Below are positions 1,364 through 56,815 of a DNA stretch of 64,000 nucleotides, piece after piece (the first letter of the stretch is position 1; each line of letters starts with the position of its first letter). The DNA comes from an uncultured Methanosarcinales archaeon (lineage in GTDB: Archaea > Nanobdellota > Nanobdellia > Woesearchaeales > GW2011-AR9): positions 34,079-98,078 of the forward strand of contig CAYJXA010000001.1 of assembly GCA_964373955.1 (NCBI GenBank), read 5' to 3'. The position numbers and the translations under genes are program-made. The notes below the pieces were generated by a model. It was not told where the DNA came from. It made no database searches and saw only the letters and a program-made list of their open reading frames with translations.

Positions 1364-1481
1364 TATTTTGTCAGAGGGTAATTTATTTATAAAGATTACG
1401 GTGGATTCTGCTTCAACACGCCTAGAGTAGCCAGTATACTTTTGAGTAATGTTTATATATTAACCTACTTTTTTCCTCAGG

Positions 1482-1901
1482 ATGGTTATTCTCTTCGATC
1501 AGTTTAACCTTCCCGAGGACATCTATAAAGTTATTTTTGCTACAGAGCAGCAGGAAGTAGTAGCCAAAATGCTTATCAAGTATATGTGGGAAAATGGAGG
1601 AGAGATTGGCAAGACTGAAATGAGCGTGTTTGCAACCCAACTGCATGAGGGCAATGCGGTCATTAAAGAGAAAGGGAAGTTACCATTTGATAAAGAAGTA
1701 AGAATTTCCTACAACAAGCGGCAATTCTACGATAGGATTTTAACACCTATGCGAGGGATGGGATTGATTGATTATGATTTATACAAGAAAACGTACAAAG
1801 TTTCTGATAAATTTAACAAATTAATGGTAAAAGTGGGATTAATGTGGATGCGGGAGATGGAAAAAGTAAAAAACGAAGTGAAAATGCTGCCAAAGCGGTA
1901 A
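1482..1901 (+). CDS. hypothetical protein
   Basis: 139-aa ORF with typical coding composition and no recognisable motif. Confidence 0.4.
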   Translation: MVILFDQFNLPEDIYKVIFATEQQEVVAKMLIKYMWENGGEIGKTEMSVFATQLHEGNAVIKEKGKLPFDKEVRISYNKRQFYDRILTPMRGMGLIDYDLYKKTYKVSDKFNKLMVKVGLMWMREMEKVKNEVKMLPKR

Positions 1902-1911
1902 GAGTTGAAGT

Positions 1912-3087
1912 CTATACGCTGCCTGCCTGCTGTTTCAACAAATCTGCTTTATCGGCCTTCTCCCAGGTAAAATCAGGATCATTTCTGCCAAAGTGCCCAT
2001 AGGCCGCAGTTTTCTTATAGATCGGTCTCCGTAGGTTTAATTGCTCAATGATTGCCTTAGGACGGAAATCAAAATTCTTGCGGATGATCTCTACAATTTT
2101 CTCTTCAGGTATTTTACTGGTGCCGAAGGTGTTTACTAAAATGCTTACTGGTTGAGCTACACCGATAGCATAGGCCACTTGTATCTCGCATTTCTCTGCT
2201 AATCCCGCAGCAACGATATTCTTAGCTACATAGCGAGCATAGTAGGCAGCGGAACGGTCTACTTTCGTCGGATCTTTGCCGCTAAAGGCCCCGCCGCCAT
2301 GCCTAGAATATCCACCATAAGTGTCAACGATAATTTTTCTTCCGGTACAGCCGGCATCTCCAACTGGACCCCCGATCACAAATTTTCCCGTGGGGTTGAT
2401 GAAATATTTTGTCTGGGCATCAATCCACTCATGGCAGATGGGTTTGACAATTTTCTCAATCATATCTCTGCGAATAGTTTCTAAATCAACATCAGGATGA
2501 TGCTGGGTGGAAATAACAACGGTATCCACTCTCTTTGGTTTTCCATTTTGATATTCTACCGTCACCTGTGATTTTCCATCTGGACGCAAATACCATACTT
2601 CACCCCGCTTTCGAGCACTCGCTAAACGTTGGGTTAACTTATGGGCGAGAATTATTGGCAAAGGCATGTATTCCGGGGTTTCATTGGTGGCAAATCCAAA
2701 CATTAAGCCTTGATCTCCAGCTCCCTGCTCTTTGAATAATCCCTCCCCTTCATTGACTCCCTGTGCAATATCGGGGGATTGCCCGGAAAGTGCAACTAAA
2801 ACTCCACAAGTGCTACCTTCAAACCCATATTCTGGTTTGTCATAGCCTATTTCTAAGATGGTGTCACGAGCGATTTTCTGCACATCGACATAGGTGTTCG
2901 TGGTTACTTCTCCTCCAACGACGACAAAGCCCGTTTTTGTTAAACATTCTATAGCCACACGAGCGTGGGGGTCATCTTTGTAAATTGCATCTAAGATGCC
3001 ATCACTAATCTGGTCACAAATTTTATCGGGGTGCCCTTCGGTCACACTCTCTGAAGTAAATAAAAAATTTTCTTTGTTATCTGACAT
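1912..3087 (-). CDS. metK: S-adenosylmethionine synthetase (bacterial/eukaryal MetK type)
   Basis: [13 protein letters not shown] and [19 protein letters not shown] match the MetK signatures. The likely start is the internal Met (MSDNK...), not the ORF-track start. Confidence 0.95.
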
Positions 3088-3170
3088 GGTATTCGCCTCC
3101 GAGTTGATTAATAGAAAGGCCACCTAAAAGCTATATAAAATCTTGTGACAAGAATATTCTAATTGGAATA

Positions 3171-6646: not shown

Positions 6647-8274
6647 GATCTCATCCCCTCAATTAATCCATCTGGGTCAAAGACCAAGTTATCATAGCCG
6701 GACTGGAGCGCAAACTCTTTCACGAATTTTTTTAATTCTCCCCGTAACGGAGCAAGATTTTCCTTCCTCATTTCATCATAGTAGGAACAGCGTCCAGCAG
6801 GGTGATCACCATGTATCCACACCGAACCTACTACCTCCATTTTTGTTCCGCTAGCAGCATACACTGAAACAAATTGGTGGTCAGCATCTGATAAAACTCT
6901 GGCAACGGCAGAAGACCCCTCTCGATACCAATCATTGATTTCTTTCTCTCTATCAATCAATGCGTTCATCACTTGAATCAAACTTCGTTCTACCGTAAAG
7001 AGATACCTTCTTCCCTCAATATCAACTTCTTTGCTCATTTCACCGGAAGTGTAGAATTTCCGCTGGGCATCACTTTGCACTGACTCTAAGACCGCTCCAG
7101 ATCGCTGCAATCTCTTCTCCAGGATCTCTTGTTTTAAAGCATCGAAGAGTAATTTATATCCACGCTGAGAAGCAAGTTCCTCCACGACTGCAGGCCAATA
7201 TTGTTCATCAATAAGATGAATTTTTCTTGCTCCCTCTTCTAAGACGGCGTTCGCAAATTGATCATACCCCTGAGTAGATCCTAAAACGGCATTAACGATT
7301 TTCCGAGAAAATTTTTTCTTTTCTTCAGCTGACCTTTCAACATAGCGTGCCTGTTCTATTGCCTGTAAATACCACCATTTTGGGGTTAGTTCAGGGCTGT
7401 GGCAGGGAATATATCTTTGCTCACCAGTTAACATCTGTGTTATCCAGTTAGCATCATGATTGTCATGTTCAATTGAGCGCGGAGTATAATACTCAAAAGC
7501 GTTAATAATCCCTGAATGCTCTGCTTGCACCAGGAATACCGCTAATCTTCGTGACTGCACTGACTCTGGTCCTTTGCGCATGGCTTCATGGAATAATTGG
7601 CGGACTCCCTCATCCTGAAATAATAATGCGTAGCGATCATCGTTTCTAACTAGGGTAAGAACTTCTTTATATTGAGCGGTAGATCTTACGACAAATGCAG
7701 GTGTTTTGTGTTGCAAGCGCTGTGCAGTAATTCTACGGATATTATCTGGATCTGCTTCAATCTTGACATCGTAGCCCAGAACAACGTCCAGCGTTTCATG
7801 TCTCCCCACCATGGTGCGAAAAACACGTTCCAAAAATGTTCGTCCATCTTCATCTCGGAAAAATTCCCGGATAAACCAATGCCGAAGTGTTGAACTTGCA
7901 TTGTAAAGCTGAGCTAGTTTTGAAATTTCGGTAATATAATCTTCGACCTCGGGAGCGTCCTCCAGGTCAAATTTGAGGCTGCCATCCAAGCGGAGTTCTG
8001 ACCCCTGCTCTTCTACTTCAAAGCAATGCTTAGGCCATAAATATTGATTTACAAAACCTCTCTTAAAATGGGAAGAAGTTACATATTCCCGCAAGACTTG
8101 TTGCGCGAGAGCTTTCACGGGAGAATGGTCAAAATGCTGCTTTCCTCGTCGAGGAAGACTATCTCCGATTCCCCAAGCCCAAGCAAAAGTATCGTGGGCA
8201 TGCAACCCTTCAAATAGGCGATGCACTCGGCGAGTCAAGCATTCCTGTTCTCTATCTTTCATGGCAGCCATCAT
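6643..8274 (-). CDS. large hypothetical protein (first gene of the GC-rich four-gene operon)
   Basis: 543-aa ORF that overlaps the downstream gene by 4 nt; I recognise no family motif. Confidence 0.5.
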   Translation of the reverse strand: MMAAMKDREQECLTRRVHRLFEGLHAHDTFAWAWGIGDSLPRRGKQHFDHSPVKALAQQVLREYVTSSHFKRGFVNQYLWPKHCFEVEEQGSELRLDGSLKFDLEDAPEVEDYITEISKLAQLYNASSTLRHWFIREFFRDEDGRTFLERVFRTMVGRHETLDVVLGYDVKIEADPDNIRRITAQRLQHKTPAFVVRSTAQYKEVLTLVRNDDRYALLFQDEGVRQLFHEAMRKGPESVQSRRLAVFLVQAEHSGIINAFEYYTPRSIEHDNHDANWITQMLTGEQRYIPCHSPELTPKWWYLQAIEQARYVERSAEEKKKFSRKIVNAVLGSTQGYDQFANAVLEEGARKIHLIDEQYWPAVVEELASQRGYKLLFDALKQEILEKRLQRSGAVLESVQSDAQRKFYTSGEMSKEVDIEGRRYLFTVERSLIQVMNALIDREKEINDWYREGSSAVARVLSDADHQFVSVYAASGTKMEVVGSVWIHGDHPAGRCSYYDEMRKENLAPLRGELKKFVKEFALQSGYDNLVFDPDGLIEGMRS

Positions 8275-13444: not shown

Positions 13445-13759
13445 TTATCCAAACAAAGCTCCTAGCCCTGCGGCCGCAGCTTCGTCAGCTTTCTTTTGTT
13501 CTTCTTCTTTCGATTTTTCGCTCTTCTTTGCTTCTTTTTGAGCAGGCGCTCCACCGGCAGCAGCAACTGCTACGGGCGCAGCCACGGCTGCTTTCTTAAT
13601 TGCTTCGTCAATATCAACACCTTGTAAAGCAGCTACTAACGCTTTTACTCTGGTTTCTTCGACATTGACACCGGCAGCTTTAAGCACGGATTTAACCGCG
13701 TCTTCGGTGATTTGTTTCCCTGCTTTATGAAGCAGCATTGCAGCATAGATGTATTCCAT
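13445..13759 (-). CDS. rpl12: 50S ribosomal protein L12 (P1 stalk protein)
   Basis: [12 protein letters not shown]-terminus, an Ala-rich hinge, and an acidic tail ending GLGALFG. Confidence 0.9.
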
Positions 13760-18331: not shown

Positions 18332-18634
18332 TCATTCTTCTTTCTTCTTTTTGGGCTGTTTGAGGTCACCTACTGCCTTTTTAAAAGCCTCAATTTGCTT
18401 CTCCGTCAGCGACCCAAACTGAAGATAAGCGCGCTTAATATTCCGCAAGAACATCGATTTCTCATACAACTCCCGGGGAATATCCAACAATTTTTTATAT
18501 TCAGGATCGGTTACTGGTTCTTCAATTTGTTTCATGTGGCAATCCACACAGATGGGAAATTGCCGGCTGGAATACATAATAACCATGTTTTTCTTGCATA
18601 ATGCACAACGTTGCTTATATTTCGGTCGAGGCAT
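18332..18634 (-). CDS. small zinc-ribbon protein
   Basis: Two CxxC pairs (CALCKK...CVDC); 100 aa with a Lys-rich tail. Confidence 0.45.
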   Translation of the reverse strand: MPRPKYKQRCALCKKNMVIMYSSRQFPICVDCHMKQIEEPVTDPEYKKLLDIPRELYEKSMFLRNIKRAYLQFGSLTEKQIEAFKKAVGDLKQPKKKKEE

Positions 18635-21612: not shown

Positions 21613-22250
21613 GACAATAATTCCCTCCTAGCCCTTTCAATACTCTTAGGAACCATTTCTATTAATACATCTCTCAGACGTTGATAAGCTGGAAAAAGTT
21701 CACAGAAAGCTATTGGAAGTTTATTCATGCCGGCATACACGGGTAATACTTCTATCAGGGGCGTAGACGCTGCATCTTGGTACAGTTCCCGAACTAAAAG
21801 TTCCGGTCTTTTGGCTACTGGCAAGATTAAATGGACATCCTCTCTAACTCGCGTCGGCTGAAAACAAGGTCCCGCTATTCTTAATCCAATTTCTTCCAGA
21901 GCTTGATTTCGAGATTGTTCTTCAAAACTAGCCAGAGCATAGAAGCAGCTATTAACAGAGTCTACTCCCGCATGGACACCGAACAAGGCAATTTCTCCTG
22001 CTAAATGAAGAAGTTCTGGAATGGAATGTGCATACACGCCATTTTCAAGAGCGGAAGCGACAAAAGCAGCTTTAGTTTCTGGGGTGGCTTTTACTGTTCC
22101 ATCTGGAAATAATCCACACCCACTAGAAGAAACAGTAATTCTATCGGCTAGGCCTTGCTTGCGGATATAATCACTCGCAATTGCTTCGGCCATAGGGCTC
22201 CGTCCATTATTGCCGTAACAGACATATTCTATGTTAATATGTTGATTCAT
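21609..22250 (-). CDS. LMW protein-tyrosine-phosphatase / ArsC-like protein (paralog 1)
   Basis: CYGNNGRSPMAEAIA is a CX5R(S) P-loop, as in LMW-PTP and ArsC. The likely start is the internal Met; its ATG overlaps the upstream stop codon. Confidence 0.65.
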   Translation of the reverse strand: MNQHINIEYVCYGNNGRSPMAEAIASDYIRKQGLADRITVSSSGCGLFPDGTVKATPETKAAFVASALENGVYAHSIPELLHLAGEIALFGVHAGVDSVNSCFYALASFEEQSRNQALEEIGLRIAGPCFQPTRVREDVHLILPVAKRPELLVRELYQDAASTPLIEVLPVYAGMNKLPIAFCELFPAYQRLRDVLIEMVPKSIERARRELLS

Positions 22251-23554
22251 GATAATTTTCTCACTACTCCTTTCTCCGCATCTACCTCGACTTCCTCCCC
22301 TTCCTGTAACACTTTCGTGGCAATTTTTGTGCCAATAACACAAGGCTTTTTCATCTCCCGGCAGACAATCGCTGCATGAGACGTAACTCCCCCCAAATCT
22401 GTAACTACTGCGCCTGCTAATTTCATCACCGGAACATAATCCGGGGTGGTTTCAGAAACAACCAAGATGTCTCCAGGGTTCATTCGGTGAAAATCGTGAA
22501 CAGACTTAAGCAGCTTTACTTTTCCTTTGGCTTTGCCCAGTGAAGCCGGCATGCCTTTGATATGGTCTATTCCCGTTACTTTTACAGCTATATTTTCTTT
22601 TTCTCCCGCTAGTTCGTTCCCCACAAAAATATGTTCCTCGCCATCAATTACGATAATGCCAAACCCCTTCATTCGTTCTCGCAAGGTAGTTTGAGCTTGG
22701 AATTGTTTGTCTCTGATTTCTGTAAGAGTATGCTGCACCATCTCCTCAAAAGTTAATCCTTGCTGGCGAGCAAGCGTCTCAAACCAAGGCCAGAAGTGGA
22801 AGGCAATTTTGTTCAGGCTTTCGATGAAGTGAAAACGGAGAAATGCTAATCCCTCAGCCACTTTTAATTCCGGCCAGTGTAAATCTAGAGGTTTTATGTC
22901 CGCGTGCAAAGGAGGTTCAAAAGTGCGTAGTTCTTCTCTTACTTTTTCTTTGGAGAGCGGCGTTCCCCACATGACATTAATGGTGGTCCAGCTGTATTTT
23001 TGTAGGAAGGTTGAAATATCCTGTTCGGTGAGCTTGCCTTGTTGATGGAGCGAAGCAAGTTTGGCGAATTGCGCGTCTCGTTCCATGAATTCAAGCCCTT
23101 CATGTTTTATCTGTCCCAAAACAGGGTACAATTCAATACCTTCCTGGGCGCATTTTTCACGTAAAGCTTTGGTAATCCCTTCATCAATTTGGTGAATTAT
23201 TAACCAGTAACACATCATGAGGCGTAAGTTCTCTAAGAAGAGATGGAATGAACCTAGGGAAGAATAATCATATCGTGCGGTAAGAAATTCTTGCGCTGAT
23301 TTTTTTGCGTCGGAAATAAAGGTAAATAAGTATTCAAAATCTTTCTCTTTCATCTTTGCATAAAAAAATTGTTCTAAGGCATCCCAGCCTTCTTTATCCA
23401 TGAATACTTCTCCATCAACGACTTTATATCCTTCTTTTATCGCCGGGAGATTATGTTTTTTGAAGACATGCTGAGAGTAGTAATGAGCGAAGAGGGAGCT
23501 GGTTAAAGGGACTGATTCCCAATGTCCTAGATATCGCCAGGTTGTTTCTTTCAT
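22247..23554 (-). CDS. uncharacterized helical domain fused to C-terminal PEP-utilizing-enzyme mobile (phosphohistidine swivel) domain, paralog A
   Basis: The C-terminus GDILVVSETTPDYVPVMKLAGAVVTDLGGVTSHAAIVCREMKKPCVIG matches the swivel domain. The N-terminal part has no ATP-grasp (PPDK_N) motifs. Confidence 0.7.
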   Translation of the reverse strand: MKETTWRYLGHWESVPLTSSLFAHYYSQHVFKKHNLPAIKEGYKVVDGEVFMDKEGWDALEQFFYAKMKEKDFEYLFTFISDAKKSAQEFLTARYDYSSLGSFHLFLENLRLMMCYWLIIHQIDEGITKALREKCAQEGIELYPVLGQIKHEGLEFMERDAQFAKLASLHQQGKLTEQDISTFLQKYSWTTINVMWGTPLSKEKVREELRTFEPPLHADIKPLDLHWPELKVAEGLAFLRFHFIESLNKIAFHFWPWFETLARQQGLTFEEMVQHTLTEIRDKQFQAQTTLRERMKGFGIIVIDGEEHIFVGNELAGEKENIAVKVTGIDHIKGMPASLGKAKGKVKLLKSVHDFHRMNPGDILVVSETTPDYVPVMKLAGAVVTDLGGVTSHAAIVCREMKKPCVIGTKIATKVLQEGEEVEVDAEKGVVRKLS

Positions 23555-24636
23555 GGTATTTTTCGTACTGTTCCTTTTTCTGCGTCTACTTCGACAAGGT
23601 CGCCGTCTTTGAATATCTTCGTTCCATAATTAGTTCCTACAATACAGGGAATGCCTAGTTCTCTACTTACGACAGCCGCATGCGACATCAATCCACCCTG
23701 ATCGGCAACAATAGCCTTTGCTCTACTGCATAACGCCATCAATTCCGGACTCGTGGTTTGTGCTATCAAAATTGCACCATCTTCCATCCTGTCAAAAACT
23801 TTTTGAACCAGAGACATATCATTAAACATTGGCGCAATAACTACTTTCCCGGTTACTTTTCCCTTATTAGCGATCGTTCCGGTAACCGAATCCTGCATTT
23901 TCGTTGGTAGTAAAGACTGTACCAGTATTCCAGCTTCTCTTTCTGGAATTTCAGAAATCTCTCCCTCCTGAGACAAGAGAGCAATGCATTCTTTTCTCTT
24001 CAGTATATTTTCCATATTTGGCTTTTCACCATCAAACAAATCCAAGATTTCTTGGTACGAGAGATATCGAGCGCTATCATCATCATGGAAATATTTTCGC
24101 GAGAAATAACACACGATATTAGGGATAACTCCATTGAGGAAAAAGAACTGACTCATTACTTTTCTCCCTTCCACTTTTGCTTCATAAAGATCATGTAAAT
24201 GAGGTGTAATGACTGGATTTTCCTCTTTCTTTTGGAAGGCAAGATTATGATGAGGAAATTCCGTGAACCCATACCAATACCAGTAGTTTTCAAGGAATTG
24301 AACTACGGAAACGAATTCTTCTTTAGTCATTTTTTCTGGAATCTGGCTATATTTGGAGAGAATATGCTTTTGTGCATGATCAATATGATGTCGCAATGCT
24401 GTTGATACCTTTTGATACTCCTGCGGATTGCTGAAGATTCGTACACCTTCCTGGAGGCATTTTTCTTCTCCTTCTCTATCAATAAAAGTACTCCAAAGCC
24501 CATTAGTGTATAAAATCACGATCTTATTTCTAGCGAGAGATGTTCTCCCGAAGATTTCACAATTTAGAAAAGAAGCAGTGATGATTCCATGGAACAATGG
24601 TTTAAAGTCTTGAGGATTTAGATTCATTTTAATCAT
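23551..24636 (-). CDS. helical domain plus PEP-utilizing swivel domain protein, paralog B
   Basis: C-terminus IVADQGGLMSHAAVVSRELGIPCIVGTNYG; overlaps the neighbouring genes by 4 nt. Confidence 0.7.
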   Translation of the reverse strand: MIKMNLNPQDFKPLFHGIITASFLNCEIFGRTSLARNKIVILYTNGLWSTFIDREGEEKCLQEGVRIFSNPQEYQKVSTALRHHIDHAQKHILSKYSQIPEKMTKEEFVSVVQFLENYWYWYGFTEFPHHNLAFQKKEENPVITPHLHDLYEAKVEGRKVMSQFFFLNGVIPNIVCYFSRKYFHDDDSARYLSYQEILDLFDGEKPNMENILKRKECIALLSQEGEISEIPEREAGILVQSLLPTKMQDSVTGTIANKGKVTGKVVIAPMFNDMSLVQKVFDRMEDGAILIAQTTSPELMALCSRAKAIVADQGGLMSHAAVVSRELGIPCIVGTNYGTKIFKDGDLVEVDAEKGTVRKIP

Positions 24637-26045
24637 AAAGAGGAAGTGTTAGATAACTTACGTACGGTGCCTGTTTCAGCGTCCACTTCCACTATATCTC
24701 CATCTTTAAATGCGGTCGTAGCAATATGCGTTCCCACAAGGCAAGGGATTTTAAATTCTCTGCTGATAATCGCAGCATGTGATAACATTCCGCCTTCTTC
24801 TGTCACGATCGCTCCAGCCCTGCTGGCAATATCAACGATATTCGGTTGAGTCATTTGGGTTATAAGAATATCTCCTTTCTTAAACGTCATGCGCAGTTCA
24901 TTATTTTGTTGAATGTTATTTGACTGTAAAATTCTAGCTATTCCTCTACATTTCCCGGAATTAGCGACCATCCCCTTCACTTCATCATTTTCTTTTATTT
25001 CATAAAGATTTCCTAATTCTTTCTTAGCTACATCCTCGGCTTCATTACCGGAGATTAGAATCACTTTTCCCGCTTTTAAAAGTCCCACTACGCATTTCTT
25101 TCGGTTGTTTTTTTCTTCCGAGGACAGAAATTCATGTTTCAACAATAGCTTTTCTATCTCTGGTGAGAAGTAATATTTAGTAAGATCAGATATATTTTCT
25201 CCCGTCCTGCGGGCAATTTCCGCAAATAAAGGAATAGTATAAAATTCAGTGCCTGCCCAGCAAGACTTAACTTCCATTCTGGACATCGCCAATTGCTGTG
25301 CGCGATGCACCAAAATCTGTAATTCCGGCTTGGAGGAAAGGATTGCTTCCTGCTTTTGCTGCAATTCCTCTTTTTCCCGACGTATATCCTTCCATTTTTG
25401 GTGCACAGAATCATGAGCATATCGTTGAGAAAGCGTGCCTAGAACATCATTCATGGTGAAATGGCAGGCCACCAGCCAAGGGTATTTTTCCACGTGGGTT
25501 ATCATTCTTGATTCGGAATAGGGTTGTGGTAGTATTTCCTGCCATTCCAGCTGTTCTTGGTTTAATACATCCACGCCGACAGGAGTAAGTAACACGGAAA
25601 CGTCTTTATCCGTACAATGTTTTCGTATGGCTTCGAGCAAATAATGCATTCCCTCTACTTGAGTTGGCCGGAAATAACTAATGGTTAATTGCCATTGCTT
25701 CCTAGCCTCAAGAACAAGATCCATTAATTCCTGATCAGAAATGTTTTGCCAAGGAATATTCTTTAATGACGTAAAAAAAGCGCGATGTTCTGTGCAGCGC
25801 TGCTTCAAGTCCTGTAAGAATCTAGCAGAAAGATTCTCATCGAGGAAAATTTTTCCTCTTTCTTGGTCTTCCTGCAGATCCTCGCTGGAGTGAAAGGTAG
25901 AAATGCGATTATCTCGAGAGATTTGGATGATATTTTTAGCTTGGTTCCAAGGAAAAAAATGGGGAAATTCCAGAAAACAAAATAGATTCAGCTCAATAGT
26001 CCAATGGGCTTGATAATTTCCCCATAAATATTGATAGTGTGGCAT
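24633..26045 (-). CDS. helical domain plus PEP-utilizing swivel domain protein, paralog C
   Basis: C-terminus GDILITQMTQPNIVDIASRAGAIVTEEGGMLSHAAIISREFKIPCLVG. Confidence 0.7.
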   Translation of the reverse strand: MPHYQYLWGNYQAHWTIELNLFCFLEFPHFFPWNQAKNIIQISRDNRISTFHSSEDLQEDQERGKIFLDENLSARFLQDLKQRCTEHRAFFTSLKNIPWQNISDQELMDLVLEARKQWQLTISYFRPTQVEGMHYLLEAIRKHCTDKDVSVLLTPVGVDVLNQEQLEWQEILPQPYSESRMITHVEKYPWLVACHFTMNDVLGTLSQRYAHDSVHQKWKDIRREKEELQQKQEAILSSKPELQILVHRAQQLAMSRMEVKSCWAGTEFYTIPLFAEIARRTGENISDLTKYYFSPEIEKLLLKHEFLSSEEKNNRKKCVVGLLKAGKVILISGNEAEDVAKKELGNLYEIKENDEVKGMVANSGKCRGIARILQSNNIQQNNELRMTFKKGDILITQMTQPNIVDIASRAGAIVTEEGGMLSHAAIISREFKIPCLVGTHIATTAFKDGDIVEVDAETGTVRKLSNTSSL

Positions 26046-26713: not shown

Positions 26714-27505
26714 TTATTTTCCTCCTTGTTGCATTCTTTCCATCATCCTCTGCACTGCCTGATCATGCAAATAACCTGCTTGCGTTTCCGTTAATCTTTC
26801 CCTTCCCATCATCGCTGCGCTAACTGCAAGCATAAAGTTATTCATTGACTCTTGCATTTGCATATTGCGAACATGATTTGGAAGGGCCATTTCCGTGCAT
26901 GCTTTCTCTCCACATACCAATATCCCCGGGCTAAACCCTATAAATGTGGGCTCAGGATAGGTGAAATGTTTTCTCTCAACATCACCGCCAAGCTTATACG
27001 GAGGAACTTTCCCGCAAAAACCACACAATTCACCACGCTCATTATCATCTCCATCCAGTATAAACCTTTGGTTAACGATTACTAATCCCCCCCGTTGCCC
27101 TGGCGATAATCGAGCAATATCTTCCAGGGGAATTGTGCCAACTGTTCCTTTAGTAGTTTCATACTTGACACGACACCCATCTATTGGGGAGCCTTCTCCT
27201 CCAATCTCCGGAAGGTGATAGATTGGTCGAGGGGTAACTCCGTGCCTTTCTCTGTACTCTCGCAAAGATTGATTAAATTCTGGAAGCGCTCTACGAAGTT
27301 GAGCGATGATATATTCATCAGCCCATCTCTGTAGCCTATGTAGACCCCGCCCAGAGTAGCGTCTGGTGTCCCAACGATTATTCAAGTTGAGGACTCTTTT
27401 TCGCTTATCCAACACCATTTTATATTCAGGACTACACCAGAGAGCTGCATTTCGAGCCATCATCGCATCCAAAGTAGCATTCCCGGTAGGTTCGTCTTTA
27501 AACAT
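26714..27505 (-). CDS. hypothetical protein (first gene of cluster 1)
   Basis: 263 aa in the same orientation and tightly packed with the cluster; includes CGFCGK and CGEKAC Cys pairs. Confidence 0.45.
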   Translation of the reverse strand: MFKDEPTGNATLDAMMARNAALWCSPEYKMVLDKRKRVLNLNNRWDTRRYSGRGLHRLQRWADEYIIAQLRRALPEFNQSLREYRERHGVTPRPIYHLPEIGGEGSPIDGCRVKYETTKGTVGTIPLEDIARLSPGQRGGLVIVNQRFILDGDDNERGELCGFCGKVPPYKLGGDVERKHFTYPEPTFIGFSPGILVCGEKACTEMALPNHVRNMQMQESMNNFMLAVSAAMMGRERLTETQAGYLHDQAVQRMMERMQQGGK

Positions 27506-32988: not shown

Positions 32989-33276
32989 ATGCTCTTTTTA
33001 GCAGTCATGACCATTGATTTCACCTTCGGCAAATGCAAAACTCGGGCAGGATATTCTGCTAAGCTGAAAAAGCAAGGCAAATTAGATTTAAAGAAAATCA
33101 AAGAACATTTTGAAACTATTTTAGAAACCCCCATCTTGCTCGTGATTAGAGAGCAAGGCTTGGAAATAATTGTTCACGGATATGGAGAATTATTGTTTAA
33201 GAATGGAACTGATGAACAAATAGGGTTGATGGAAAGAATTGCAGAGAATATTTATCAGAAAGGATTAGGAAAATGA
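32989..33276 (+). CDS. hypothetical small protein
   Basis: 95-aa ORF; weak evidence. Confidence 0.3.
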   Translation: MLFLAVMTIDFTFGKCKTRAGYSAKLKKQGKLDLKKIKEHFETILETPILLVIREQGLEIIVHGYGELLFKNGTDEQIGLMERIAENIYQKGLGK

Positions 33277-33280
33277 AAAG

Positions 33281-33368
33281 CGCCCCGGACCAGATTTGAA
33301 CTGGTGACCTGATGGTTAACAGCCATCCGCTTTGGTTGATTATTCTCTAACCGCTGAGCCACCGGGGC
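33281..33368 (-). tRNA. tRNA-Asn (anticodon GTT) with a roughly 15-nt non-canonical insertion (putative intron) between the D-arm and the anticodon stem
   Basis: Hand-folded. Acceptor stem GCCCCGG/CCGGGGC. D-arm GCTC-AGCGGTTA-GAG(C). Anticodon arm GATGG-CTGTTAA-CCATC. T-arm ACCAG-TTCAAAT-CTGGT. Discriminator G. The extra AATAATCAACCAAAG interrupts the 3' side of the D-stem. Confidence 0.8.
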
Positions 33369-33391: not shown

Positions 33392-33402
33392 CATTTATAA
33401 AG
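33392..33402 (-). promoter_or_regulatory. TATA box for tRNA-Asn
   Basis: TTTATAAAG centred about 30 nt upstream of the tRNA 5' end. Confidence 0.5.
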
Positions 33403-33423
33403 ATTTCGAGGCCTAAACTAAGA

Positions 33424-34125
33424 ATGCAGATTAGCACTGGAATTGAAATTATAAATACGGCCCTGTGGTTGTCAAGAGAAAAAACGCTCATTATCAATGA
33501 CCTACACCTCGGATATGAGGAAGCTTTGCATCGAAAGGGAGTTCTCGTGCCTAAATTTCAATTACAGGAAATTCTCAAGGAGATGGAATCTATCTTCCGC
33601 AAAATAGAACCAGAGAGAATAATAATTAATGGTGATTTGAAACATGAATTTGGCACGGTATTGAGACAGGAGTGGAGTGAAGTACTGCGATTCTTGGATT
33701 TCTGCTTACAGCATTGTACGGAAATAGTTATTATCAGAGGGAACCATGATCCCGTTATTACGCCAATTGCAAATAAAAGGGGGATCAAGGTCCTCCAAAA
33801 ATATGAGATAGGAAATACAATCATTGTCCACGGAGACCAGTTAATAGAAACCAAAGCCCAGCGCATTATTATCGGGCATGAACATCCTGCCATTACCATC
33901 CGGGAAGGCAGCAAACGAGAGAAATACAAATGTTTTCTCAAGGGGAAGTGGAAAGGGAAGGAATTAATTGCCGTGCCTAGCTTTAACCCTTTATTGGAAG
34001 GAACGGATATTCTGAAAGAAGAGTTGTTAAGTCCTTTTTTAGGGCATATTCAGAATTTTGCGGTGTATATTGTAAGCAAAGGAGAAGTGTTTGAGTTTGG
34101 GAAGGTGAAAAACATTCCGAAATGA
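33424..34125 (+). CDS. calcineurin-like metallophosphoesterase
   Basis: DLHLG, GDLKHE, GNHD and GHEH motifs in the canonical order. Confidence 0.7.
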   Translation: MQISTGIEIINTALWLSREKTLIINDLHLGYEEALHRKGVLVPKFQLQEILKEMESIFRKIEPERIIINGDLKHEFGTVLRQEWSEVLRFLDFCLQHCTEIVIIRGNHDPVITPIANKRGIKVLQKYEIGNTIIVHGDQLIETKAQRIIIGHEHPAITIREGSKREKYKCFLKGKWKGKELIAVPSFNPLLEGTDILKEELLSPFLGHIQNFAVYIVSKGEVFEFGKVKNIPK

Positions 34126-40244: not shown

Positions 40245-40553
40245 TTAGACAAACTCCACCCGTTTAGCCCTAATACCATGGGACTGTGAACTGGATTTAT
40301 TGCAAATAGTACAAGTATATCTCAAATCAGTTTTCTTGGTGTTCTTAGCTCCCGTACGTTTGAATTTGGTAACTGCCGGCTTAGAATAGCGACCCCAACT
40401 GCCCACACCCCGAGCAACACCTCTCTTCCGGGCTCGATATTTTGATCCTCTGCTCAGGGAACTAGCGGCCCTCTTCTTATTCTGAGCCACTTTTTGTTCC
40501 GTGTGTTTCTTACAGGTCTTGCAGTACCGCTTTACCGTCTTGGGAATCTTCAT
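40245..40553 (-). CDS. rpl44e: 50S ribosomal protein L44e
   Basis: MKIPKTVKRYCKTCKKHTEQKV... with a second CxxC; Lys/Arg-rich. Confidence 0.9.
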   Translation of the reverse strand: MKIPKTVKRYCKTCKKHTEQKVAQNKKRAASSLSRGSKYRARKRGVARGVGSWGRYSKPAVTKFKRTGAKNTKKTDLRYTCTICNKSSSQSHGIRAKRVEFV

Positions 40554-40939: not shown

Positions 40940-41284
40940 TCATAACAATCCAAGTTTCCCCGTGATTGCATCAACCTCACTCTCTCTCGCCGGACCAATA
41001 CCCACACAAGTTTTCGTGCCGGGAGCAATGACCGTTCTGCCCGCGTCGGTGATAAGCGCTGCAATGAGCCCTGCTTCTTTCGCTTGCTGAAAATAGGAAA
41101 GAAGTTCTTTTTCATCTTTCACTTTAAGAACTATTTTGGCCATGCCCTGGCTTCGCCACGCTTCCACCACTTTCTTATCCGATTTCAGAACTGCCTCTAC
41201 GGAAGCATGGGCGGCTTGAGCTGCTAATTTTCCCTTGGGTAGCTTTAAGTCCTGCCTTACGAGGATGATTTGTTTGTAGTCCAT
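40940..41284 (-). CDS. pth2: peptidyl-tRNA hydrolase (archaeal Pth2)
   Basis: KQIILVRQDLKLPKGKLAAQAAHASVEA matches the Pth2 core; the start is taken at the internal Met. Confidence 0.85.
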   Translation of the reverse strand: MDYKQIILVRQDLKLPKGKLAAQAAHASVEAVLKSDKKVVEAWRSQGMAKIVLKVKDEKELLSYFQQAKEAGLIAALITDAGRTVIAPGTKTCVGIGPARESEVDAITGKLGLL

Positions 41285-41955
41285 AATAAGTGCGCCGGGA
41301 GCGGGAATTCCGTTAAGGAAATTCGAACCCACATACTTTCGGGCGAGGGTGTGCTTGATTGAGCAACCCGCTCTTTTTCTTTTTATTAGTCAAAAAGGAA
41401 ATCGGCTACCACCGATCACAGACCGGTGGCATGCTCACTCACTTCATTTGCTCGAGTCGATTCCCTTTTGACTCCCAAAATTTTTCACTCTAACTGATGG
41501 GGTAGTGTTCTACGCCACCAGTCCTAGACTGGGTGGAAAATTTTGAGGATTCTGAGAAGAGATATAAAGCTTTCTTTTACAAATTGAGCGTGTCTTTTTT
41601 TAATAATAAGTGTATTTTAGAAAAAAGGTCGATGTTTTGAAAAATTATTCAAAAAAATCAAGTTTACTTTCAATTAATTTCCTGCTGACTTTAGAGAGAA
41701 TCACACCAAGAAACAATTCTTCTTTCAAGCTCAAGGAGCTTTAGGAATTGGCCTTTGCTTGGCTCAGATAGTGCATCAGGATGTTGGTTTCCTGGGTTAA
41801 GAGAAGCTTTCATAAAAACAAAATTATCTTTAATTTTAGCGCAGGTATCAGTAGAACCATTCTGATATCCTCAATCATATGCTTCTTGGCTACTAGAACA
41901 AGCTAAAGCTAAACCAACTCCAGCGTATCTTGCAAGTTGGTAAAAACCTCGCATT

Positions 41956-52275: not shown

Positions 52276-52632
52276 ATGAAAAAAATACTTCAAGGGTTGG
52301 GAGTAAGTAAGGGAAAAGCCAGAGGCATTGTTCGCATTATCACAAATGGACAGGATTATTCTCACTTTCAAGCTGGAGACATCCTTGTAACGAGGCTCAC
52401 GGATCCAACGATGGTGCCGGTGATGGGAAAAGCTGCTGGGATTATTTGTGAAATCGGTGGAATGACATCACACCCTTCTATTGTTAGTAGGGAACTTGGA
52501 ATTCCCTGTATTGTTGCTGTTGATAACGCTACAGAAATTCTCAAAGAAGGTGATCTGATTGAAATATGCGGGGAGACAGGAGAAATTAACCTCCTGGAAA
52601 ATAAATCGACATGGAGGCTACGATGGGGATAA
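52276..52632 (+). CDS. standalone PEP-utilizing swivel domain protein (second copy)
   Basis: GKARGIVRI...GDILVTRLTDPTMVPVMGKAAGIICEIGGMTSHPSIVSRELGIPCIVA. Confidence 0.7.
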   Translation: MKKILQGLGVSKGKARGIVRIITNGQDYSHFQAGDILVTRLTDPTMVPVMGKAAGIICEIGGMTSHPSIVSRELGIPCIVAVDNATEILKEGDLIEICGETGEINLLENKSTWRLRWG

Positions 52633-55318: not shown

Positions 55319-56815
55319 ATGAAAACCAAAGAAATTGTCCAGCATCTGCAAGGCAAAAAATGGCGCAAGCGGGGAACATGGCCGCATTACATTATTAGCA
55401 GCGAAATATTCGGGGAAGGGGAAACCGCATCCTACTGCCAACGATTAGGATATCCGTTCAAGCGCACCTTAGGAATTTGGTACAAAGAAGACTGGTTTGA
55501 CCCGGAAGAAGAATGGGAGGCTATTGGTGCCATCGTTACCTCAGAATACAAAAAAGATCCTGCCTATTTATGGAAATATGGACAACATTGCCTTCAACTT
55601 GGAGAAGAGACTATCCGAAGAACAAAAGAATTAGGGGAGATTGATCCTGCAACGATATCAAATGAGGAGTTAGGGCATAGATACAGGGAGGCAATTACGG
55701 AAATCAAGGGATACATGCCCTTCATGTTTAGCCTGCATCTTTTTGACAAATTCCTCACGGAAAAGTTTGAAGAATTGTTGAGTGCATTTATTCGAGAAGA
55801 GAAGCTTCCAAAAGAAGACTATTTCAAGTATCAAACGGCTTTAACACTCCCAAATAGGAAAATCTTTGTCTTACAGGAGAAAGTTGATCTAATGAAAATA
55901 GCTCTCCTTGCCAAAAAGAAGAAGGAAGGGATTAAGGATAAAGCCATCCAGAAAAAAATGGAAGAGCATACGGCACAATATGGTTGGATCAATATGGCTT
56001 ACTTAGAAGCACTTCCTCATGATAAAACTTATTTCCACCAAAAAGTACAGGCATTGTTAGAAACAGATGTAGAAAATGAGTACAATCAAATCGCAAGTTA
56101 TGAGAAAAAGCTCATTCGAGAAAGAGAAGAGTACATGAACAAGATACAGAGAGGGGAATTACATACCATTTGCAAGGCTATCCAATTATTTGGATTTCTG
56201 CGATCATTCCGCTTGGATACAGCATACATTGCATATTATAACTGCTGGAAAGTTATCCAAGAAATTGAGAAGAGGCTTCACCTGCCCGTGTTTGACATTC
56301 GGTACCTCGATTCAAAAGAAGTTTCTTTTGCTCTCCAAAACCCTAAAGAAAAAGGATACTTACACCTAATTCAGGAACGAAAAAGAGGAGTACTGTCCAT
56401 AATGATCGAGGACACGCGTCTTGAAATTACAGGAGAGGAGATAGAAGCTATTACACGAGAGATTACCTTTCCAAAGGAAATTCTTTCAGCAGCCATTAAA
56501 GGGACTACTGCTTACCCCGGGAGGATCATAGGACCATGCAAAGTGCTTCATCGTCTGGAGGATATGCAAAAAATGTGCGTAGGAGATATCCTCGTGATTG
56601 CGATGACTGACCCCAATTATATTCCGGCGATGGAAAAAGCAGCAGCTTTTGTGACGGATCAAGGAGGGATTCTCTGCCATGCTGCTATTGTCAGCAGGGA
56701 AATGAAAAAGCCCTGTATTATTGGAACAAAATCAGCAACTAAATCATTCAAAGACAAGGATATACTAGAAGTAAACGCTGATGAAGGGATAGTAAGAAAA
56801 ATCGATGAGAAATAA
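55319..56815 (+). CDS. helical domain plus C-terminal PEP-utilizing swivel domain protein, paralog D
   Basis: C-terminus GDILVIAMTDPNYIPAMEKAAAFVTDQGGILCHAAIVSREMKKPCIIG. Confidence 0.7.
   Translation: MKTKEIVQHLQGKKWRKRGTWPHYIISSEIFGEGETASYCQRLGYPFKRTLGIWYKEDWFDPEEEWEAIGAIVTSEYKKDPAYLWKYGQHCLQLGEETIRRTKELGEIDPATISNEELGHRYREAITEIKGYMPFMFSLHLFDKFLTEKFEELLSAFIREEKLPKEDYFKYQTALTLPNRKIFVLQEKVDLMKIALLAKKKKEGIKDKAIQKKMEEHTAQYGWINMAYLEALPHDKTYFHQKVQALLETDVENEYNQIASYEKKLIREREEYMNKIQRGELHTICKAIQLFGFLRSFRLDTAYIAYYNCWKVIQEIEKRLHLPVFDIRYLDSKEVSFALQNPKEKGYLHLIQERKRGVLSIMIEDTRLEITGEEIEAITREITFPKEILSAAIKGTTAYPGRIIGPCKVLHRLEDMQKMCVGDILVIAMTDPNYIPAMEKAAAFVTDQGGILCHAAIVSREMKKPCIIGTKSATKSFKDKDILEVNADEGIVRKIDEK

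Follow-up and report, generated by a model that had tools for sequence, protein, structure and literature searches.

The window considered here, by which we mean the whole stretch of DNA analysed (64,000 nucleotides, 64 kb), contains a single tRNA-like gene, located on the minus strand at positions 33281-33368; no second tRNA was found in these 64 kb. It is confirmed as a real archaeal tRNA-Asn gene, whose D-arm is interrupted by an intron of 15 bases. The pre-tRNA-Asn(GUU) gene has a length of 88 nt, does not encode CCA, and reads on the minus strand GCCCCGG UG GCUC AGCGGUUA G-AGAAUAAUCAACCAA-AGC G GAUGG CUGUUAA CCAUC AGGUC ACCAG UUCAAAU CUGGU CCGGGGC G, the hyphens marking the intron borders. 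The 5' exon (33347-33368, tRNA positions 1-22) comprises the acceptor 5' strand, U8 and G9, the 5' strand of the D-stem (GCUC), the D-loop and G22. It is followed by the intron (33332-33346) at position 22/23, and by a 3' exon (33281-33331, positions 23-73) composed of A23, G24 and C25, the anticodon arm with the anticodon GUU at 33318-33320, the variable loop AGGUC, the T-arm, the acceptor 3' strand, and the discriminator G73. An earlier sequence-only reading had proposed a tRNA-Asn(GTT) at this place without giving a strand, and the parts quoted there, a 7-bp acceptor (GCCCCGG/CCGGGGC), the anticodon arm GATGG-CTGTTAA-CCATC and the T-arm ACCAG-TTCAAAT-CTGGT, are all present. It had further described a D-stem GCTC...GAGC interrupted by the insert, whose removal would yield a canonical tRNA of 73 nt, and this description holds: for the 73-nt sequence left after excision of the 15 nt, ARAGORN draws a perfect tRNA-Asn(gtt) cloverleaf with all stems intact, in which a 5-bp stem carries the 7-nt loop with GUU and the discriminator is G73. 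The conserved residues U8, A14, G18G19, U54U55C56 and A58 are all found in the spliced form, both in the sequence and in the ARAGORN fold. A second copy of the intron sequence was not found in the window.

The gene is accompanied by recognizable transcription signals. A palindromic TATA box, TTTATAAA, is located on the minus strand at 33394-33401, which is 26-33 nt before the position of the mature 5' end and agrees with the earlier reading (about 30 nt upstream), and is preceded on its 5' side by a purine-rich BRE-like element, CGAAAT, at about 33402-33408. Directly 3' of the discriminator lies the oligo-T tract TTTTCATTTT (33270-33279, minus strand), which is likely to be the archaeal transcription stop of the gene. 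The arrangement (A)GAAAT-N-TTTATAAA was found at an equal distance in 11 of 12 orthologues of the gene, the exception being the intron-less locus L020, and T-runs follow the tRNA gene in the orthologues, too. At two of these loci, L006 (about 1440-1500, minus strand) and L021, a strong G+C-rich hairpin (e.g. GGGAGGGTTACGCAAGTAACCTTCC) is inserted between tRNA and T-run; it is absent from the gene in the window. The TATA box also lies upstream of a divergently oriented phosphoesterase ORF, at a distance of only 22 nt from its ATG (33424; region 33394-33424), so that a single TATA element may be shared by both genes, with a leaderless phosphoesterase mRNA on the plus strand. This divergent layout is present at all orthologous loci except L010 and L011, and the TATA box is recognizable at all loci with this layout except the intron-less L020, where the tRNA is about 236 nt away from the phosphoesterase. 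In L010 and L011 (the P0047 loci), a protein-kinase ORF is located directly upstream of the phosphoesterase, and a tRNA-Asn was not found within 2 kb of the latter, showing that the linkage of tRNA and phosphoesterase is not universal.

The other genes of the window identify the host as an archaeon of the DPANN group. Family scans detected the archaeal hallmark proteins ribosomal L1 and L10P (P0), the exosome subunits Rrp4, Rrp41 and Rrp42, proteasome alpha, SBDS, and TrmB regulators, and aIF2alpha was recognized from its translation alone, without a family scan. Further genes encode DnaK/GrpE/DnaJ and a MetK of bacterial type, and many ORFs have no Pfam match. For both L1 and the phosphoesterase next to the tRNA, the most similar homologues with a name (66-73% identity) are assigned to 'Candidatus Woesearchaeota', 'Nanoarchaeota' or 'Nanoarchaeia', and none of them belongs to a methanogen, which places the window in the Woesearchaeota/Nanoarchaeota. 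The host genome is of the mesophilic type, with a G+C content of 41%. Two of the orthologous loci described below, L001 (CAYIBV010000110.1) and L002 (CAYOKQ010000006.1), are MAG contigs titled 'uncultured Methanosarcinales archaeon'. This taxon was rejected for them, as their phosphoesterase and L1 proteins cluster, at 72-80% identity, with their counterparts in the window and with proteins bearing the name Woesearchaeota or Nanoarchaeota; since the proteins of the 41,457-bp contig of L002 belong to the same group, both titles look wrong and probably represent a taxonomic mislabel. The endonuclease of Methanosarcinales is believed to tolerate strict canonical introns only, and an intron at position 22/23 would therefore be surprising in this order and is unsurprising in DPANN archaea. 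Neither a gene for the splicing endonuclease EndA nor one for the ligase RtcB was detected in the 64-kb window, where 65 of its 67 non-overlapping ORFs with a length of 100 amino acids or more were assessed. Of these, 55 were compared with Pfam/NCBIfam, six were judged by eye from their translations (DnaK, GrpE, Fpg, aIF2alpha, DapF and 26714-27505), and four short ones (13445-13759, 18332-18634, 40245-40553 and 40940-41332) were judged via the precomputed Pfam tables of relatives, a collection with partial coverage.

The archaeal bulge-helix-bulge (BHB) motif is composed of a 4-bp helix with 3-nt bulges on opposite strands at either side, the splice sites being located in the bulges (PMC4090602). 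In canonical introns, the 4-bp helix is closed by the first two anticodon bases (PMC4090602), from which it follows that each cut occurs after the second nucleotide of a bulge. As a loose scan, in which any 4-bp helix with an inner helix (h') of at least 1 bp was allowed, produces dozens of chance matches per precursor, the test was limited to excisions that restore a perfect cloverleaf; all of these were enumerated and each one was scored for BHB geometry. For the gene in the window, six excisions restore the cloverleaf, and the cut after nucleotide 22 is the sole one among them that gives a central helix with 4/4 pairs. Because of an AG repeat, cuts after nucleotide 22, 23 or 24 lead to an identical product, and since the BHB fits exclusively at 22/23, the intron is AGAATAATCAACCAA (33332-33346) and not AATAATCAACCAAAG. 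Hence, the claim of an insertion of about 15 nt at a non-canonical site in the D-stem stands, whereas the position given for it, 24-26, has to be replaced by 22/23.

In this register, the exon strand of the central helix is formed by the D-loop nucleotides G18 G19 U20 U20a (GGUU, 33349-33352; ensemble pairing probability about 0.9) and the intron strand by AACC (33334-33337), which is invariant in all five distinct intron variants at this site. The bulge at the 5' splice site, A21 G22^A (33346-33348), has its predicted cut between 33347 and 33346, and that at the 3' splice site, A A^A23 (33331-33333), between 33332 and 33331. Both flanking helices are minimal: the outer helix (h) consists of the 2 bp G15-C25 and C16-G24, and the inner helix h' of the 2 bp G-C and A-U closed by the loop AUAA. 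The earlier proposal of an archaeal non-canonical intron with a BHB, to be sought at the exon-intron junctions, is thus matched by a GGUU/AACC helix with both 3-nt bulges and 2-bp flanking helices in a DPANN host. By chance, a strict BHB in the product-preserving register was obtained with 0.17% of insert shuffles and about 1% of random 15-mers. In the minimum free energy (MFE) fold of the precursor, the GGUU/AACC helix is kept and the inner pairs adopt another register with a 1-nt bulge (G22-C31, A23-U30); at -27.9 vs -32.6, the energy of the strict BHB conformer is less favourable by 4.7 kcal/mol. The MFE folds of the orthologous precursors are erratic, for which reason thermodynamics alone was not used for deciding. 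With flanking helices of 2 bp each, and an h' of 1 bp in the orthologue L004, the motif ranks among the weaker ones of the hBHBh' type; it is real but weak-flanked.

Comparative evidence was obtained from loci with conserved synteny. L001 and L002 were found by scanning one genome per species for a pattern, L004 and L006 by a metagenome scan, and further loci were retrieved via homologues of the phosphoesterase. In the first four, the neighbours of the tRNA are those seen in the window, a small ORF and the SbcD-related phosphoesterase, with 64-82% protein identity; across all matched flanking proteins the identity is 57-82%. In the 13 syntenic loci, the tRNA-Asn gene is either intron-free or carries BHB introns at one or two of five positions (22/23, 30/31, 37/38, 53/54 and 59/60), resulting in seven different combinations (intron lengths in nt are given in brackets). 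The intron at 22/23 is the single one in the window (15), L002 (18) and L006 (25), and it is combined with an intron at 53/54 in L001 (15 and 31; gene at 2351-2469 of L001) and L012 (18 and 21) and with one at 59/60 in L014 (15 and 31) and L004 (14 and 31), the 15-nt introns of L001 and L014 being identical in sequence to that of the window. The 53/54 intron occurs alone in L016 (21) and L017 (20), and the 59/60 intron alone in L007 (48), together with a canonical 37/38 intron in L019 (13 and 85, respectively, for 37/38 and 59/60) and together with a 30/31 intron in L021 (31 for 30/31 and 42 for 59/60). L020 has no intron and the same D-arm, GCUC AGCGGUUA GAGC, and its tRNA-Asn is called directly by ARAGORN.

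An intron exactly at 22/23 is thus present in six syntenic orthologues (L001, L002, L004, L006, L012 and L014), in five distinct variants of 14, 15, 18, 18 and 25 nt, and every one of these introns yields a 4/4 central helix only for the cut after nucleotide 22. AACC and the bulges are kept in all variants, and the inner hairpin varies as G/C, GA/UC, GUA/UAC and GCGGCAC/GUGUUGC, corresponding to an h' of 1-7 bp in the orthologues (1 bp in L004); in L002, L012 and L006 this helix (3-7 bp) begins exactly after the 3-nt bulge. The 53/54 introns (L001, L012, L016 and L017; 20-31 nt) form their central helix from the T-stem, with a compensatory change from CGUC/GACG to CGCC/GGCG in L001, bulges AG^A or AG^C and AA^U, an inner hairpin of 4-5 bp and no outer helix (h=0; HBh'-like). 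The T-loop introns at 59/60 (L004, L007, L014, L019 and L021; 31-85 nt) have a central helix UUCA/UGAA or UUCG/CGRA, and the 5-bp T-stem serves as outer helix. The geometry rule gives a unique solution with a 4/4 helix for the introns at 53/54, 30/31, 37/38 and 59/60 except for the 59/60 introns of L004 and L014, in which the best register has only 3/4 central pairs and h'=0, so that some introns at the locus lack a clean 4/4 solution under the rule. The canonical 37/38 intron of L019, with the 5-bp anticodon stem as outer helix, was recovered by the same rule and served as an internal positive control.

The restored cloverleaf, the 4-bp helix with two 3-nt bulges, the helices h and h', and the structure-preserving variation among relatives characterize the insert as a non-canonical BHB intron, and we consider it very probable that the gene is a DPANN (Woesearchaeota-type) tRNA-Asn(GUU) gene with one such intron between positions 22 and 23. 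If the insert were instead kept in the RNA, the product would be either a class II tRNA-Leu(AAG), with the insert as anticodon arm and GATGG...CCATC as long variable arm, or a tRNA-Asn with a permanently enlarged D-arm. ARAGORN, which had been named as a check in the sequence-only reading, makes an intron-free call that seemingly refutes the interrupted tRNA-Asn: both with and without the intron option, it reports for the unspliced gene only a tRNA-Leu(aag) at 33280-33368, because the introns it considers are confined to the anticodon loop. The MFE fold of the unspliced form also keeps the acceptor, anticodon and T arms and a 3-bp D-stem around a small hairpin (z = -2.99). However, in the tRNA-Leu(aag) drawing the D-stem consists of two Watson-Crick pairs and one G-U, the anticodon stem contains an A-A mismatch and a U-G pair, and the true anticodon hairpin is displaced into the variable region. 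Leucine tRNAs have the discriminator A73, and the gene has G73. In the orthologues the insert measures 14-25 nt or is absent, so that the putative AAG loop is not conserved, and the fold does not occur in any of them: ARAGORN finds no tRNA in ten of the 11 other intron-bearing loci, including L001, L002, L004, L012 and L014, and reports 'tRNA-???' for L006. Moreover, the conserved G18G19 would be locked in the GGUU/AACC helix, and, as seen from L020, this tRNA body functions as tRNA-Asn in the absence of the insert. On these grounds, the identity as tRNA-Leu(aag) was rejected, and retention of the insert in either form is extremely improbable. Rfam found no match in the window at the gathering threshold, a self-splicing intron included, and a permissive search gave a partial tRNA match of 25 bits (gathering threshold 29), which spans positions 9-63 of the model and takes the insert as D-loop. 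Neither tool is designed for introns outside the anticodon loop, and their output neither confirms nor refutes the intron. Self-splicing group I or II introns possess a catalytic RNA core of hundreds of nucleotides, and this type was rejected for an insert of only 15 nt without any Rfam match in the window.

A tRNA-Asn pseudogene, inactivated by a small insertion and left unprocessed while a functional copy is located elsewhere in the genome, would be compatible with the short flanking helices of the BHB, with the Rfam score below threshold, and with the size of the window, since a second tRNA-Asn gene may lie outside its 64 kb. It would have to be reconciled with four arms, anticodon, discriminator, promoter and stop signal that are all intact, with an insertion in the exact register that creates a BHB, and with the maintenance of the site in six orthologues despite the divergence of the flanking proteins and with intron changes that preserve the helices. 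As most orthologues carry some BHB intron, interruption appears to be the normal state of the tRNA-Asn gene in this clade, and we regard inactivation as highly unlikely. More weight, though still the lesser part, is due to splicing of the same intron via a relaxed motif (HBh'- or hBH-like, with a 1-nt 5' bulge), which would leave the mature product unchanged and would demand an endonuclease of broad specificity. The register of the MFE fold and the energy penalty on the strict form point in this direction, as do the 2-bp helices h and h', the absence of an outer helix in the 53/54 introns of relatives, the incomplete central helix of some 59/60 introns, and the broadened specificity proposed for DPANN alpha4 EndAs with an L3 loop (PMC5829648). 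In opposition to this, the strict 3-nt/4-bp/3-nt form can be drawn for every variant at 22/23, and the position at which the longer inner helices of L002, L012 and L006 start is that demanded by a 3-nt bulge; a relaxed motif is therefore judged unlikely, and the strict BHB is used in the following.

By analogy with established archaeal tRNA splicing, from which cleavage, ligation and the presence and type of EndA are inferred, processing of the transcript can be envisaged as follows. Transcription would start from the BRE/TATA promoter at 33394-33408 and end in the oligo-T tract. In the precursor, G18 G19 U20 U20a and the intron sequence AACC would form the 4-bp central helix, bordered by the two 3-nt bulges (A21 G22^A and A A^A23), the intron hairpin and the two exon-exon pairs. 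EndA would cut after the second nucleotide of each bulge, that is after G22 and after intron nucleotide 15, so that a 5' exon of 22 nt, the intron of 15 nt and a 3' exon of 51 nt would be released. The exons would then be joined by an RtcB-type ligase at the predicted G22-A23 junction (GGUUAG^AGCGGAUGG), whereby the GCUC/GAGC D-stem would be restored and G18G19 would become available for their tertiary interaction with the T-loop. The tRNA of 76 nt would be completed by RNase P, RNase Z and the CCA-adding enzyme.

Non-canonical BHB introns in tRNA genes of Crenarchaeota/Thermoproteales and Nanoarchaeota were reportedly described by Marck and Grosjean in 2003 and by Sugahara and co-workers in 2008. 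They include the positions 22/23, 53/54 and 59/60, and the known non-canonical sites of archaea comprise 20/21, 22/23, 25/26, 29/30, 30/31, 45/46, 53/54, 56/57 and 59/60 (PMC4090602). The intron in the window resembles those of the named groups in being short, presumably spliced by proteins and located outside the anticodon loop, in its 4-bp helix with 3-nt bulges and in its site, and its relatives share with them the occurrence of multiple introns per gene. Unlike the crenarchaeal introns, it is found in a mesophilic-type DPANN archaeon and not in a TACK hyperthermophile. In DPANN lineages, a Woesearchaeota among them, more tRNA gene disruption goes along with an EndA of the alpha4 type that has an L3 loop (PMC5829648), and at the level of the lineage such an enzyme is expected for the host of the window rather than the (alpha-beta)2 type with a Crenarchaea-specific loop. 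In the pre-tRNA-Glu(UUC) of Methanopyrus kandleri, an intron likewise interrupts the D-arm region, and its removal by EndA was tested experimentally; this tRNA differs by an additional canonical intron, by the relaxed HBh' form of the D-loop intron and by an (alpha-beta)2 enzyme (PMC5829648), whereas the gene in the window has a single intron for which both bulges can be drawn. ARMAN-2 (Ca. Micrarchaeum) is also a DPANN host with non-canonical tRNA introns, of which an hBH intron at 59/60 of pre-tRNA-Cys is cut by an epsilon2 EndA (PMC3239211; PMC5829648). The same 59/60 site is used in L004, L007, L014, L019 and L021, but ARMAN-2 belongs to another DPANN lineage with another endonuclease architecture, and the intron in the window is at 22/23. 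Compared with the canonical archaeal 37/38 BHB intron, of which L019 provides an example in the orthologous gene, geometry and presumably enzymes are the same; the canonical intron is located in the anticodon loop and has the anticodon stem as a long outer helix, whereas that of the window has a 2-bp outer helix and obtains its central helix from G18G19 of the D-loop.

As both the 22/23 site and tRNA disruption in DPANN archaea have already been published (PMC4090602; PMC5829648), the intron belongs to a known kind. What is new is a well-supported BHB intron at 22/23 with comparative evidence, and no new mechanism is revealed; it is added to a lineage in which such introns are barely described, no specific account of woesearchaeal tRNA introns having been found in the literature consulted beyond PMC5829648. 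The analysis also recovers a tRNA-Asn gene that is mislabelled as tRNA-Leu(aag) by ARAGORN and remains below threshold in Rfam. Failures of this kind make DPANN genomes appear short of tRNAs, a gap noted in PMC5829648, where tRNA genes were predicted in DPANN genomes, including that of a Woesearchaeota, and the incomplete sets are taken as a sign of disrupted genes that escaped detection. Orthologues that differ in intron position, as collected here, could be used for studies on intron gain and loss and on endonuclease specificity.

In a neighbour-joining tree of the flanking protein, which is based on a single gene and has no support values, the 22/23 intron is scattered among lineages lacking it, which gives a hint of repeated gain or loss. 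Many introns at the locus have purine-rich bulges (AG^A ... AA^N) in common. Repeated gain of tRNA introns by transposition has been proposed for Thermoproteales, and the patchy distribution and the shared bulges would fit such a process in a DPANN lineage whose endonuclease is presumed to be of the alpha4 type. We therefore tentatively suggest, as a possibility short of an even chance, that the intron in the window is a snapshot of unusually fast intron turnover at one orthologous tRNA-Asn locus in Woesearchaeota. If true, the locus would offer a compact natural series on the spread of BHB introns and its co-evolution with EndA specificity.

Three further observations concern other genes. The S-adenosylmethionine synthetase of the window (1912-3123, minus strand) matches the bacterial/eukaryotic-type MetK model (TIGR01034, 597 bits) and not the archaeal type, which fits gene transfer into a DPANN genome. 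At 22247-26045, 52276-52632 and 55319-56815, five ORFs, three of them in tandem, have a C-terminal 'PEP-utilising enzyme, mobile domain' (PF00391) as their only domain and N-terminal regions without Pfam match, representing an unusual local expansion. Finally, the metagenome scan returned two false pattern matches, L003 (about 580-700) and L005 (about 6650-6790), which come from AT-rich (30-35% GC) contigs and contain a complete, intron-less tRNA-Asn gene of bacterial type; in both, this gene is directly preceded by a tRNA-like 5' fragment composed of acceptor strand and D-arm (GGRAMGTAGCTCAGTWGGTTAGAGCAT), perhaps the remnant of a duplication or a disrupted tRNA of another kind.
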